Below are positions 22,725 to 56,884 of a stretch of DNA of 64,000 nt, in pieces (the stretch's first letter is position 1; each line of letters begins with the position of its first letter). A program made the translations under genes and the position numbers. The stretch comes from Tagaea sp. (GTDB lineage: Bacteria; Pseudomonadota; Alphaproteobacteria; CACIAM-22H2), in assembly GCA_965279525.1 (NCBI GenBank), contig CBDIIB010000005.1:1504001-1568000 (forward strand), read 5' to 3'. The notes below the pieces were generated by a model. That model was given only the letters and a program-made list of their open reading frames with translations. It was not told the DNA's origin and ran no database searches.

Positions 22725-23390
22725 TCATTCGCTGGCCTGGCGCAGCGATGCCGCCATGGCGAAAGGGGCGAGCGTCAGCGCGAACACGCCGAGCCCGGAA
22801 AGCAGGAACAAATGGGGCCGCACGGGCAGGCCGGCGACTGCCGCCTCCACCGCCGCGACCGCGAAGATCAATACCGGCACATAGAGCGGCAGCACGATCA
22901 GGGCAAGGAGGGCGCCGCCTTTTCGTGCCCCCACCGACAGTGCGGCACCGATCCCGCCCATCAGCGACAGCGTCGGCGTGCCGAGCAGCAGCGTGGCCAG
23001 CAGCGTGCCGTAGGCCTCGGCCGGCAGCTGCAGCATCATCGCGACGAGTGGCGACACGACGATCAGCGGCAGCGCCGTCGTCAGCCATTGTGCGGCGCAC
23101 TTGGCCAGCGCCAGCAGCTCGAGCGGGGCAGGGGCGAGGACGAGCTGCTCGAGGCTGCCGTCGTCGGCCTCGGCCTGGAACAGCCGGTCGAGCGACAGCA
23201 GGCAGGCGAGCAGGGCGACCACCCACACGATGCCGACCGCCACGCGCGCCAGCACCTGCGGCTCGGGTCCGATGCCGAAGGCGAAAAGTGTTGCCGCGAT
23301 GACGAAGAACGCGAGGATCGTCAGCGTCTCGGCCGGCGTGCGCAGCGCCAGCTTCACGTCGCGCGCGACGAGGGCGAAGGCGGCGTTCAC
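22725..23390 (-). CDS. ccmB: Heme exporter permease CcmB
   Basis: LSLDRLF..EADDGSLE, LAKCAAQW, LLLGTP.LS, LPLYVPVLIF. Confidence 0.95.
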   Translation of the reverse strand: MNAAFALVARDVKLALRTPAETLTILAFFVIAATLFAFGIGPEPQVLARVAVGIVWVVALLACLLSLDRLFQAEADDGSLEQLVLAPAPLELLALAKCAAQWLTTALPLIVVSPLVAMMLQLPAEAYGTLLATLLLGTPTLSLMGGIGAALSVGARKGGALLALIVLPLYVPVLIFAVAAVEAAVAGLPVRPHLFLLSGLGVFALTLAPFAMAASLRQASE

Positions 23391-24019
23391 TTGGCCGTCC
23401 CCAGCGTCAGCGTGCGCGCGTCGGCACCCGCGAAATCCAGATGCGTGGCCGCGATGACGATGCCACCGCCGGCCCGGTGGTGCGCGATGGCGCGCGCAAG
23501 ACTGCCGGTCGCCGCCTCGTCGAGGCCGTTGGTCGGCTCGTCGAGCAGCCACAGCCGGGCCGGGGCCGCGAGCAGGCGCGCAAGGGCCGCGCGCCGGCGC
23601 TGGCCCTGGCTCAGGAAACGCGCGGGAACGTCGGCAAGTGCGCCAAGCCCGAACGCGTCGAGGGCTGCCGCCGGATCGCCGCCGGCGGCACCGCGCAGGG
23701 CGGCGTGGAACGCGATGTGTTCGCCAAGCGTCAGCGTGGGCTTGAGCGCGTCGTTATGGCCGACGAAATGCAGCCGCGCGCGGTGGCCGGCCGGATCCCC
23801 GGCAACGTCTTCGCCGTCCCACGCGAGCGTGCCGTCGGCGGGGCCGAGCAGGCCCGCCAGCACGCGCAGCAGGCTCGACTTGCCCGTCCCGTTGGCACCG
23901 CGCAGCACGACGAGGTCGCCCGGCCGCGCGTGCAGGCCGACATCGCGGAACACCAGCCGGCCGCCGCGACGGCAGGCGAGTGCTTGCCCTTCGAGGCCAG
24001 CGGTCGAATCCGTGTTCAT
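23387..24019 (-). CDS. ccmA: Heme exporter ATPase CcmA
   Basis: CRRGGR, GANGTGKSSLLR, LSQGQRRR, WLLDEP. Confidence 0.93.
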   Translation of the reverse strand: MNTDSTAGLEGQALACRRGGRLVFRDVGLHARPGDLVVLRGANGTGKSSLLRVLAGLLGPADGTLAWDGEDVAGDPAGHRARLHFVGHNDALKPTLTLGEHIAFHAALRGAAGGDPAAALDAFGLGALADVPARFLSQGQRRRAALARLLAAPARLWLLDEPTNGLDEAATGSLARAIAHHRAGGGIVIAATHLDFAGADARTLTLGTAK

Positions 24020-24036
24020 CGGCGAGAGATTAGCGG

Positions 24037-24082
24037 AAAAAAAGTGGCGGATACGAACCGTACATCCGGGCCCGTATCCGCC
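24037..24082 (-). terminator. Intrinsic terminator on minus strand just upstream of ccmA
   Basis: Perfect 10-bp stem GGCGGATACG/CGTATCCGC C (24046-24055/24073-24082), 17-nt loop, then AC and T7. Confidence 0.7.
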
Positions 24083-24185
24083 TTCGCACAAGTTCCCGGC
24101 TGGGGCTGGAGTCCGGGGAGCTCCAGTCGGGTAAATAAGTCGGCAACAAGTTGCGTGCGCGATCGCAGTGGACTTGCCGATGGTC
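24037..24185 (-). ncRNA. Candidate ~150-nt small RNA (5' end estimated)
   Basis: ECF-like promoter upstream, two internal hairpins, CUUAUUUA linker, CUCCCC loop, terminator; no credible ORF. Confidence 0.55.
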
Positions 24186-24191
24186 CAATAA

Positions 24192-24217
24192 AACGCGACC
24201 GCCACGGCTTTATTCGG
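24192..24217 (-). promoter_or_regulatory. ECF sigma-type promoter
   Basis: CCGAATAAA-N13-CGTT, identical elements and spacing to 56859-56884. Confidence 0.65.
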
Positions 24218-24416
24218 GCCGCTTTATGGCCGAAACGTGAAATCGCACCGGGGCGACAAGTTATGCGGATTTTGTAATCATTATCGAATAGTTAATGCAT
24301 GAAACGCATGTCTCGGCTGTGTGCAATGCAGCGTGAAATTCAGATTTCAGTCACGATTGAGGTCCATATTGCTCCCATCGGACGCCGGACATGACCGGTG
24401 CCGTTTGGAGATCAAA

Positions 24417-24545
24417 ATGCTCGCGTTCGCAGCCCTCGCCGCCATTCCCGCCGTCATCGCCCTGCTCGCGATGGCGCATGACGTGATCGACGAGTCGTTC
24501 GTCGTCACCAACCCGGCGTTGATGGCAGCGGCCGCCGGCCGCTGA
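24417..24545 (+). CDS. 42-aa hydrophobic small protein, unknown
   Basis: GGAG 6 nt before ATG; MLAFAALAAIPAVIALLAMAHDVIDESFVVTNPALMAAAAGR; GC-rich third positions. Confidence 0.6.
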   Translation: MLAFAALAAIPAVIALLAMAHDVIDESFVVTNPALMAAAAGR

Positions 24546-24557
24546 GCTGCCGGGCGT

Positions 24558-25802
24558 CTAATCGAACTTCCGCACGTCCTCGATCACCTTGCCGTCGTTC
24601 GGCAGGGTGCCGGGGGCGGTGAATTCGATGGCGCCCTTCATCTTCGTGACGGACTGAAGCGCCTCGGCGAGTTTCGCCGCGAGGCCCGCATCCGCCACCC
24701 CCTCGACCTTCAGCGTCATCGTGTCGTTGTCGCCCTCGCGCGCCACGACAAGACGGTATTTCGCGATCCCGTGCCGCTTGGCCGCCTCGGCCACCTGGCC
24801 CGGATGGACGAACATGCCCTTCACCTTCGTGGTCTGGTCGGCCCGTCCCATCCAGCCGCGCAGGCGCCGGTTGGTGCGACCGCACGATGAGGTGCCGGGC
24901 ACGAACATCGATAGATCCCCGGTCCCGAAGCGGATCAGCGGATAGTCGGGATTGAGCGTCGTCACGACGACCTCGCCCACTTCGCCGTCGGCCAGCGCTT
25001 CGCCGGTTCCCGGCCGCACGATCTCGACCACCAGCCATTCGTCGAGGATCAGCCCCGCGTCGGGTACGCTCTCGTAGCCGATCAGGCCGAGATCGGCCGA
25101 CGCATAGCATTGGCGAAGGGAAATCCCCTTGGCGTCCATCTCGCCGCGCAGCGCCTTTGGCACCGCCTCGCCGGACACGAGGGCGAGCTTCAGGCTCGAC
25201 ATGTCGGCCTGAAGCTCCGCGCCTTTTTCCAGAACGATCTTCAGGAACGACGGCGTGCCGACGTAGCCCTTCGGGCGGATGTCGGCGATCGCGCGCACCT
25301 GCTGTTCGGTGTTGCCGGTTCCCGCCGGCACGACCGGACAGCCGATGGCGTGGGCGCCCATTTCAAGCATCGAGCCCGCCGGCGTCAGGTGATAGCTGAA
25401 GCAGTTGTGCACGATGTCGCCGCGCCGGAACCCGGTCGCCCAGAGTGCGCGCGCCAGCCGCCAATAGTCGGGGCGCATCGCCTCGGGATCGTAGATGGGG
25501 CCGGGCGACATGAAGATGCGGCCCAGATGCTTGGTCTTGATCGCCGTCAGCCCGCCGAACGGATCGCGCGCCTCGAAGCGCTTCTTCTGTAGCTCGATGA
25601 GATCGCCCTTGCGCACGACTGGCAGCTTCGAAAGGGCCGCACGGTCGGTCACGCGCGACGGATCGACGTCTGCCAAAGTCTCGGCGAAATGCGGCGCGTT
25701 GGCCTTCGCGTTCTCGATCTGGTTGCGCAGGTCGGCGAAGTGCCGGTCCTCGCGCAGGGAAGGATCGCGGGTTTCCAGATCGTCGAAATATTCCGATGTC
25801 AT
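24558..25802 (-). CDS. Phenylacetate-CoA ligase-like (PaaK family) protein
   Basis: IFMSPGPIYDPE, NCFSYHLTPAG, YVGTPSFL, YASADLGLI, YPLIRFGTGDLS, GRADQTTKVKG. Confidence 0.85.
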   Translation of the reverse strand: MTSEYFDDLETRDPSLREDRHFADLRNQIENAKANAPHFAETLADVDPSRVTDRAALSKLPVVRKGDLIELQKKRFEARDPFGGLTAIKTKHLGRIFMSPGPIYDPEAMRPDYWRLARALWATGFRRGDIVHNCFSYHLTPAGSMLEMGAHAIGCPVVPAGTGNTEQQVRAIADIRPKGYVGTPSFLKIVLEKGAELQADMSSLKLALVSGEAVPKALRGEMDAKGISLRQCYASADLGLIGYESVPDAGLILDEWLVVEIVRPGTGEALADGEVGEVVVTTLNPDYPLIRFGTGDLSMFVPGTSSCGRTNRRLRGWMGRADQTTKVKGMFVHPGQVAEAAKRHGIAKYRLVVAREGDNDTMTLKVEGVADAGLAAKLAEALQSVTKMKGAIEFTAPGTLPNDGKVIEDVRKFD

Positions 25803-54318: not shown

Positions 54319-55203
54319 ATGGCCCATCTCGACGACAGCGAGACCCAGCGCGCCAACACGATCTACATCCGCCGCGCGATGAAAGCGCCGATGCTGGAGC
54401 GCGAGCGCGAGCTGGCCCTTGCCCGCGCATGGCGCGAGACCGGCGACCAGACGGCGCTGGGCGAGCTGGTCGGGGCCTACGGGCGGATGGTCGTGTCGGT
54501 GGCGCTGCGCTTCCGCCATTACGGCCTGCCGGTCGGCGACCTGATCCAGGAAGGCAATATCGGCCTGATGCAGGCCGCCCAGCGCTTCGAGCCGTCGCGC
54601 GACGTGCGCTTTTCCACCTACGCGCAATGGTGGATCCGCGCGGCGATCCAGGATTTCGTGCTGCGGAATTGGTCGATCGTGCGCACGGGCACGACCGCCG
54701 CGCACAAGTCGCTGTTCTTCAACCTGCGCCGGCTGCGGGCGCGTCTCGACGATCCGTCGTCCGACCACATGACCGATGCCCAGCGCGGCCGCATCGCGCG
54801 GACCTTGCGCGTCAATCTTTCGGACGTGGTCGAGATGGAGGGCCGCATGTCGGCCTCCGACCGTTCGCTCGACGCGCCCATCGGCGCCGACGGCGATTCC
54901 GACTGGGTGTCCACATTGGTCGACAGCCGTCCGACGCCCGAGGACGCGACGATGTGGTCACGCGACGGCTCGGCGCGCACGCGGCTGGTGCGCGAAGCGT
55001 TGGGCGATCTCAGCCCGCGCGAACGCGCGGTGATCGAGGCGCGGCGCCTGGCGGAAGAAGGCGTGACGCTCGAAGCGCTCGGCTCGAAGCTCGGGATCTC
55101 GAAGGAGCGCGTGCGCCAGATCGAGCATCGCGCATTGGGCAAGCTCAAGGCCGCCCTCGTGCGCCGCGTCGCGGATCCGACGGACCTGTTCGCGGGCGCC
55201 TAG
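54319..55203 (+). CDS. rpoH: RNA polymerase sigma-32 factor, RpoH2-like
   Basis: DLIQEGNIGLM, RFSTYAQWWIRA, NWSIVRTGTTAAHKSLFFNLR (RpoH box), ISKERVRQIE. Confidence 0.92.
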   Translation: MAHLDDSETQRANTIYIRRAMKAPMLERERELALARAWRETGDQTALGELVGAYGRMVVSVALRFRHYGLPVGDLIQEGNIGLMQAAQRFEPSRDVRFSTYAQWWIRAAIQDFVLRNWSIVRTGTTAAHKSLFFNLRRLRARLDDPSSDHMTDAQRGRIARTLRVNLSDVVEMEGRMSASDRSLDAPIGADGDSDWVSTLVDSRPTPEDATMWSRDGSARTRLVREALGDLSPRERAVIEARRLAEEGVTLEALGSKLGISKERVRQIEHRALGKLKAALVRRVADPTDLFAGA

Positions 55204-56858: not shown

Positions 56859-56884
56859 AACGGCAGCACTTCGGGTTTATTCGG
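56859..56884 (-). promoter_or_regulatory. Probable autoregulatory ECF promoter
   Basis: CCGAATAAA-N13-CGTT directly upstream of the ECF gene. Confidence 0.7.

Follow-up and report, generated by a model that had tools for sequence, protein, structure and literature searches.

In a stretch of 64,000 nucleotides from the genome of Tagaea sp. (contig CBDIIB010000005.1, positions 1,504,001 to 1,568,000; hereafter the window), the cytochrome c maturation gene ccmA is preceded by a discrete, conserved and structured RNA of ca. 150 nt that ends in an intrinsic terminator and represents a new RNA family. Throughout the genus, the promoter region of this RNA carries the same motif as that of a gene for an extracytoplasmic function (ECF) sigma factor located 32.7 kb away, and a contig with matching ends was found in an RNA library. 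The reading that we favor, with a probability of roughly 0.5, is that of a small RNA dependent on an ECF26-type sigma factor, ended by its own terminator and acting via a C-rich loop, with ccmA being expressed separately. Since it has the same special promoter as the stress sigma gene, the RNA would probably be the only target of this sigma factor in the genus outside of the factor's own operon.

A preliminary description of this DNA, made without database searches, had postulated a ca. 150-nt RNA at this locus, and this outline has held up well. The 20 sequences of the genus align across ca. 150 to 159 nt, with stems that vary and long blocks that do not, and a search of Rfam 15 gave no match at positions 23900-24600 even at E<=10, while a scan of the whole window at the Rfam gathering scores returned a single match, a tRNA. 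Alignment with MAFFT and folding with RNAalifold alone misaligned two hairpins, P1 and P2, in one clade and recovered no more than the long-range helix and the terminator; we used a model-based alignment instead, built on a covariance model of the 20-sequence genus alignment with the structure (P1, its inner stem P1b, P2 and the terminator) specified by hand. In this alignment (A3; 35 sequences and 41 base pairs), 91.1% of the cells are paired, compared with 35-45% in controls in which the partner was slid by 1-3 columns. Changes on both sides affect 29 pairs (10-15 in the slid controls), the covariation score is 0.406 (at most 0.084 in the slid controls), and none of 500 shuffles reached the observed values. 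These figures favor P1, P1b, P2 and the terminator, to which the alignment was fitted, and the pseudoknot helix described below lies outside of the model.

Hairpin P1 is present just where it had been proposed. The preliminary description had missed, however, that the apical loop of P1 pairs with the linker between P2 and the terminator. This pairing is found in all 35 sequences over 6-9 bp and shows compensatory changes, which across genera include AUCGCGU/ACGCGAU, GUCGCGC/GCGCGAC and one extra U-A pair, with the register of the helix differing by one position between the genus and the others. The P1 loop leaves 1-2 unpaired bases 5' of the pairing strand and none 3' of it, from which we infer an H-type pseudoknot whose long connecting loop contains P2. 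We also note that, at four loci of one other genus, the P1-loop motif occurs a second time (CGACATCGCGC), ca. 55-70 nt before the RNA and just past the stop codon of the upstream paaK-like gene; in transcripts reading through from this gene, the extra copy could compete for the linker strand.

The loop of hairpin P2 carries the sequence CCCGGACUCC, which is identical in 35/35 aligned sequences (the genus and nine further genera), lies single-stranded within a loop closed by a covarying stem and is replaced by CUUGGACUCC in one further genus. The preliminary description had drawn this hairpin as a CUGGAG/CUCCAG stem with a 9-nt loop. Such a closure can indeed form in part around CCCGGACUCC in the clade of the analyzed genome, but only there, and it is the longer pairing CCCGACUGG/CCAGCCGGG, closing a larger loop, that is conserved. 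The terminator and its U7 tract ending at 24037 are present where they had been placed, with a stem of 14 bp. All 20 genus loci have the terminator with its U-tract (14 bp, U7-9), and 97.8% of its cells are paired. Its loop (24060-24068, minus strand) holds a GGAUGUA sequence that is invariant in 20/20 genus sequences while the stem covaries and that other genera do not keep. In plain terminators, the loop is seldom conserved.

Features of the RNA locus and of the sigma factor locus (window coordinates; pairing strands are given 5' to 3')
Feature	Position	Strand	Details
Structured RNA	24037..24187	-	predicted start 24187-24184; 3' end in U7 (24043-24037); covariance model covers positions 1-154
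Putative ECF26-type promoter of the RNA	24192..24217	-	-35 CCGAATAAA (24217-24209), 13-nt spacer, -10 CGTT (24195-24192)
Conserved block upstream of the -35 element (..TTTCGGCCATAAAGCGGC..)	24218..24241	-	conservation with distant genus members begins at ca. 24241
Hairpin P1	24140..24180	-	UCGGCAA 24180-24174 with UUGCCGA 24146-24140; double changes in 7/7 pairs
Inner stem P1b	24166-24164 with 24155-24153	-	GCG with CGC; double changes in 2/3 pairs
P1 apical loop AUCGCGCA	24163-24156	-	bears the pseudoknot 5' strand
Pseudoknot 5' strand UCGCGCA	24156..24162	-	in the P1 loop; pairs with 24090-24084
Pseudoknot 3' strand UGUGCGA	24084..24090	-	in the linker between P2 and terminator
Hairpin P2	24095..24131	-	CCCGACUGG 24131-24123 with CCAGCCGGG 24103-24095; double changes in 7/9 pairs
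P2 loop CCCGGACUCC	24108..24117	-	proposed seed or recognition site
Intrinsic terminator	24037..24082	-	stem 24082-24069 with 24059-24046; U7 24043-24037; double changes in 10/14 pairs
TAATCT, -10-like hexamer	24027..24032	-	7 nt before the ccmA ATG
ccmA, first gene of the ccmABCDE..G cluster	23387..24019	-	TIGR01189, 190 bits (cut-off 131.6); ATG 24019-24017
Matching promoter of the ECF sigma gene	56859..56884	-	CCGAATAAA (56884-56876), 13 unrelated spacer bases, CGTT (56862-56859); kept before 21/21 genus orthologues
ECF sigma factor, 181 aa	56286..56831	-	Pfam Sigma70_r2 and Sigma70_r4_2; TIGR02937
Putative membrane anti-sigma factor, 352 aa	55208..56266	-	overlaps or abuts the sigma gene

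In the genomes searched, the RNA family was found in a narrow range of bacteria. With a 221-nt query, BLAST retrieved the element from 19/20 further genus genomes, the exception being 83% complete, and from none of 20 genomes outside of the genus. The covariance model reached further and gave full-length matches in 36 of the 50 genomes of the bacterial family, distributed over 9 of its 15 genera. Switching off the filters added one genus, for a total of 37/50 genomes and 10/15 genera, and the order comprises the same 50 genomes as the bacterial family. In a sample of the class, the covariance model matched only 1 of 150 other genomes, and this match is weak (24.6 bits), lacks the loop motif and does not lie near ccmA, so we consider it spurious. 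A loose two-block pattern matched at least 119 stretches across all public genomes, mostly by chance: among 80 of these that we evaluated with the covariance model, 2 were real and both came from the same bacterial family.

The promoter motif shared by the RNA and the ECF sigma gene was found exactly as first described with regard to sequence, spacing, coordinates and the lack of relationship between the two spacers. On the side of the sigma gene, 28 nt separate the CGTT from the GTG start of the open reading frame (ORF; 56831-56286). Two matches in the window compare with 0.02 expected from 100 shuffles, and a scan of the 4.35-Mb genome for GAATAAA-N13-CGTT detected only the two claimed sites (0.13 expected) despite 36 occurrences of GAATAAA as such. 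AATAAA, which had been pointed out as rare, occurs five times on the two strands of the window together. A looser pattern, GAATA-N15-CGTT, has 12 sites in the genome at 9.8 expected, so that the ten sites other than the RNA and sigma promoters are background. Across the genus, this looser pattern is invariant at 20/20 RNA loci, with the spacer between the boxes varying freely, and is found upstream of 21/21 sigma orthologues at 30-72 nt before the gene, with the first G of GGAATA being replaced by C in 19/21 of these sigma promoters.

A search of 21 genus genomes with CGAATAR-N14-CGTT returned 70 matches, compared with 19 for the reversed pattern as a control. Twenty of these are sigma promoters, 20 are RNA promoters, and the remaining 30 include no site that is common to the whole genus, so that the conserved predicted regulon consists of the sigma factor's own operon and the RNA. 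As a separate observation, three genomes belonging to one clade (G015, G009 and G001) share a third site that fits the promoter pattern with identical sequence, CGAATAGGGAGTTGGCGCGCTCGTT; it may be either a clade-specific extra target of the sigma factor or a conserved coding stretch. We further used the 20 sigma promoters from the remaining genus genomes to train a promoter weight matrix and scored 8.69 million sequence windows with it. The sigma promoter of the analyzed DNA ranked first (25.3 bits) and the RNA promoter ninth, the seven sites on ranks 2-8 being devoid of an AATA core.

With its -35 element GGAATA (mostly with C as its first base in the genus) and its -10 element GT, the promoter of the sigma gene fits the published ECF26 consensus (PMC6180224), to which the one given in the preliminary description is close. 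This survey of Sinorhizobium meliloti ECF sigma factors assigns the same -35 GGAATA and -10 GT elements to the ECF26 sigma factors RpoE1, RpoE3, RpoE4 and RpoE6, some as GGAATAA-N14-CGTT. Mapped RpoE6 promoters in its Table 1 have this latter form, with transcription starts ca. 8-9 nt past the CGTT, so the motif and spacing at the RNA and the sigma gene are the same as those of mapped ECF26 promoters.

For evidence of expression, we compared four RNA-library runs with the 651-nt stretch at 23800-24450, of which one behaves as a true RNA library (longest contig 5.4 kb). Its sole contig on this stretch is 168 nt long and covers positions 24183-24021 with 2 differences and 4 + 1 unaligned end letters, while ccmA and the part of 23800-24450 that precedes the predicted start are free of contigs from this library. 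The 5' boundary falls 5-8 nt past the CGTT, as is expected for ECF promoters, and agrees with the transcript start near 24185 that had been predicted. We regard this metatranscriptome contig as a moderate hint at a transcript. The other runs were set aside: X20 and X21 have contigs that span both promoter and terminator at ca. 93% identity but contain DNA, as evident from contigs of 148-171 kb, and X7 is probably DNA as well.

Downstream of ccmA follow ccmB, ccmC, ccmD, ccmE and a DsbE-type gene. As had been proposed, ccmA seems to have a -10 element of its own, and a TAnnnT hexamer is present at 20/20 genus loci, where it begins 12-14 nt before the ccmA ATG and leaves a gap of 6-8 nt. This position fits a leaderless ccmA mRNA transcribed from its own promoter in the genus. 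Two coupled differences set the genus apart from its relatives, the ECF promoter of the RNA and the -10-like element of ccmA. The relatives have a conserved arrangement of their own upstream of the RNA, GCCAY-N11-AATGA-N3-CACAAT, which was found at equivalent positions in at least 14/16 loci of other genera. The GCCAY block at equivalent distance is kept between the genus and the others, while the CACAAT block is missing from the genus loci.

If the favored reading is correct, release of the sigma factor by its anti-sigma factor would allow RNA polymerase to start 5-8 nt past the CGTT at ca. 24187-24184 and to transcribe ca. 150 nt, of which the P1 apical loop would pair with the linker to form the H-type pseudoknot and P2 would display its invariant C-rich loop before transcription would end at the 14-bp terminator and U7. 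The released RNA would then base-pair with mRNAs via this loop, which is complementary to GGAG-type ribosome-binding sites, while ccmA would be transcribed into a leaderless mRNA by way of a separate -10 element. For this scenario, we infer the dependence on the sigma factor, the exact start, the release as a free RNA, the action in trans and the direction of regulation, which the preliminary description took to be repression. The genome does encode hfq. Exact 10-mer complements of the P2 loop occur five times, including the RNA locus itself, and two of them lie at the start regions of genes for a DppC-like permease and a 74-aa protein, while a 9-mer complement of the loop is found at the start region of a gene for a CheY-like regulator. 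A scan of duplex energies over 19,851 putative start regions was dropped because it was swamped by GC-rich false starts. Irrespective of the RNA, we noticed that the CheY-like single-domain regulator gene is preceded by an inverted repeat, GCAACGC-AGTTGC, followed by TATTTTTT in 9/9 orthologous loci (G000 contig C4, ca. 492900-492990, and its orthologues), an arrangement resembling a binding site for a regulator together with a -10 element.

Several observations weigh against a sigma-controlled small RNA. The RNA family predates its ECF control: GGAAT[AT]-N14-16-CGTT precedes 20/20 fetched sigma orthologues of other genera, whereas the ECF motif was found at 0/16 of their RNA loci, so that control by the sigma factor cannot be the original logic of the family. 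At 36/36 loci (20/20 in the genus and 16/16 in other genera), the RNA is located immediately upstream of ccmA in the same orientation, and it stays there at 5/20 genus loci where tblastn found no upstream paaK-like gene; the neighbors of ccmA are different in four genera that lack the RNA. In the other genera with the RNA, a TAnnnT hexamer is present within 45 nt of the ccmA start at 0/16 loci and the gap between terminator and ccmA start is often only 0-20 nt, so that ccmA may depend on read-through there. A compact pseudoknotted fold is also more typical of cis-acting elements than of Hfq-type small RNAs, and the RNA contig runs 16 nt beyond the U-tract, which implies that at least two reads crossed the terminator. 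Such contigs prove neither ends nor strand, and this one comes from a single study at a depth of 3. As regards trans action, no conserved target was found when the CheY-like site, one of the three candidates, was followed into relatives: only GGAGUC, the Shine-Dalgarno portion of the match, is kept in 7/9 orthologues, and the rest varies.

An RNA that is older than its ECF promoter, fixed before ccmA and pseudoknotted also fits a cis-acting 5' leader of the ccm operon, similar to an attenuator or riboswitch and perhaps with a dual role, and we treat this as the main, if less likely, alternative. Its fold, with a covarying pseudoknot and a loop kept invariant over 10 genera, would bind a ligand or protein and set transcription past the terminator into ccmABCDE. 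The ECF26-type promoter would have been added in the genus to raise ccm transcription under stress, and terminated leaders may also build up as a by-product or serve a second function. As the ECF26 regulons of S. meliloti include cytochrome genes (PMC6180224), it is plausible that the system is linked to cytochrome c maturation. On the other hand, the leader reading would lead one to look for an antiterminator, but no conserved alternative partner of the terminator 5' arm was found (folds of 10/35 sequences truncated ahead of the terminator 3' arm pair it with differing ones), and the 3' strand of the pseudoknot abuts the terminator without overlapping it. The terminator of the genus is very strong, the ccmA hexamer is placed for a leaderless mRNA at all 20 loci, and neither a Shine-Dalgarno sequence nor a leader lies between the terminator and the ccmA ATG. 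Furthermore, the RNA contig does not extend into ccmA, and no Rfam family matches the RNA. A further, quite unlikely scenario is that an ancient riboswitch-like leader sensing a ligand such as heme, or a related signal, for the heme-handling ccm operon was uncoupled from ccmA in the genus, with ccmA having gained a leaderless promoter and the ECF26 sigma factor having captured the RNA as its sole outside target; if true, we would have caught a leader midway through its conversion into a stress-controlled small RNA.

It is also conceivable, though unlikely, that the RNA is real but the resemblance of its upstream region to the sigma promoter is non-functional, the ECF link being an overinterpretation of 13 shared bases, with another sigma factor transcribing it as must be the case in the other genera, where the shared upstream arrangement takes the place of the ECF motif. 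The RNA promoter scores 13.5 bits in the weight matrix, far below the sigma promoter, because the bases flanking both boxes differ, and the relatedness of the 20 genus loci means that their agreement reflects few independent events. Against a non-functional resemblance, the exact core and spacing occur only twice in 4.35 Mb, the core is invariant at 20/20 loci next to a freely varying spacer, the CACAAT block of the other genera is missing from the genus, and the contig begins at the distance from the CGTT at which a transcript from an ECF promoter would start. A small protein encoded by a 52-codon ORF with TTG start (24188-24030, minus strand) is highly improbable. This ORF exists and its stop codon lies within a conserved GCTAA, but all three frames are mostly open in most of the 20 relatives of this GC-rich stretch (longest stop-free runs of 33-68 codons per frame), so that an open frame carries no information at the RNA locus. 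Moreover, insertions or deletions of 1 and 2 nt distinguish the relatives within conserved parts, and substitutions follow base pairs rather than codons, so we rejected a coding function. Taken together, we continue to favor the sigma-dependent small RNA.

Among known systems, the closest precedent is GsrN of Caulobacter, a small RNA dependent on the ECF sigma factor sigma-T/EcfG that uses an exposed C-rich hairpin loop to pair with an mRNA leader (PMC5869019). Both would be alphaproteobacterial small RNAs transcribed by an ECF sigma factor and featuring a C-rich loop, with sigma dependence and pairing being conjectural for the RNA described here. The differences are that GsrN belongs to the ECF15/EcfG system with NepR and PhyR instead of an ECF26-type sigma factor with a putative membrane anti-sigma factor, that GsrN activates katG, and that no relation of the two RNAs by sequence or Rfam family was found, the pseudoknot and the fixed position before ccmA being particular to ours.

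The enterobacterial small RNAs MicA, RybB and MicL form the repressing arm of the sigma-E response, also an ECF response, and end in an intrinsic terminator with a U-tail. They are shorter, have their seeds at the 5' end and lack a pseudoknot. Besides the different sigma group and promoter, our system differs from them in that the RNA is apparently the only conserved target beyond the operon of the sigma factor. Regarding structure, H-type pseudoknots are known from riboswitches such as those of the preQ1-II and SAM-II classes, and terminator-type riboswitches and attenuators likewise act ahead of operons. Like these, the RNA combines a conserved, pseudoknotted fold with a subsequent intrinsic terminator immediately ahead of an operon, but it differs from them in that it has no match in Rfam, no alternative antiterminator pairing was found, and the downstream gene seems to have its own promoter in the genus. 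In summary of these comparisons, the system is set apart from EcfG-GsrN and the sigma-E small RNAs by its sigma group, its pseudoknot, an apparently minimal regulon and a fixed ccm context in which the promoter has changed in a lineage-specific manner.

No class of signal-responsive sigma factors in bacteria is larger than that of the ECF sigma factors, but small RNAs are known to belong to the output of only a few of them, such as sigma-E and EcfG. The literature that we searched, in the portions accessible to us, reports no small-RNA output for the ECF26 group and contains no description of RNA-level control of the ccm operon or of an RNA element before ccmA. In the accessible portions of the S. 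meliloti survey, no small RNA has an ECF26-type promoter, and the single RpoE6-responsive small RNA had a non-matching one (PMC6180224). If the regulon predicted across 21 genomes holds, the physiological output of this sigma system would run through this one RNA. The well-supported new structured RNA family, with its pseudoknot and its fixed place before the cytochrome c maturation operon, is of interest beyond this, and the contrast within the bacterial family amounts to a natural experiment on how RNA elements exchange their regulator and, possibly, the way in which they act.

The sigma factor itself is of the group-4 type with regions 2 and 4 only and matches TIGR02937 with 81.9 bits (cut-off 42.9), while its best NCBIfam rows, PRK12511 and PRK12540, fall under their cut-offs. 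Orthologues are found in 21/21 genus genomes at 83-98% identity. The assignment of the adjacent gene as an anti-sigma factor is putative: its match to zf-HC2 is weak (23.2 bits at a cut-off of 22.2), as is that to the anti-sigma family NF052375 (40 bits at a cut-off of 100), and the hydrophobic stretch that makes a candidate membrane span was judged by eye. A gene for RpoH (sigma-32; 54319-55203, plus strand; NF005693, 367 bits, cut-off 315) and the anti-sigma gene are convergent with 5 nt between their ends, which places two stress sigma systems tail to tail.

Two further observations concern the region upstream of the RNA. The stretch at 24242-24360 (minus strand), between the conserved upstream block and a small divergent ORF, is AT-rich, which is unusual for a genome with 66% GC content, and is poorly conserved among relatives. 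The divergent ORF itself (24321-24545, plus strand; likely start at an ATG near 24418) encodes a small hydrophobic product (MLAFAALAAIPAV...) that has no match in Pfam or NCBIfam but has tblastn matches at 20/20 genus loci with 38-100% identity.

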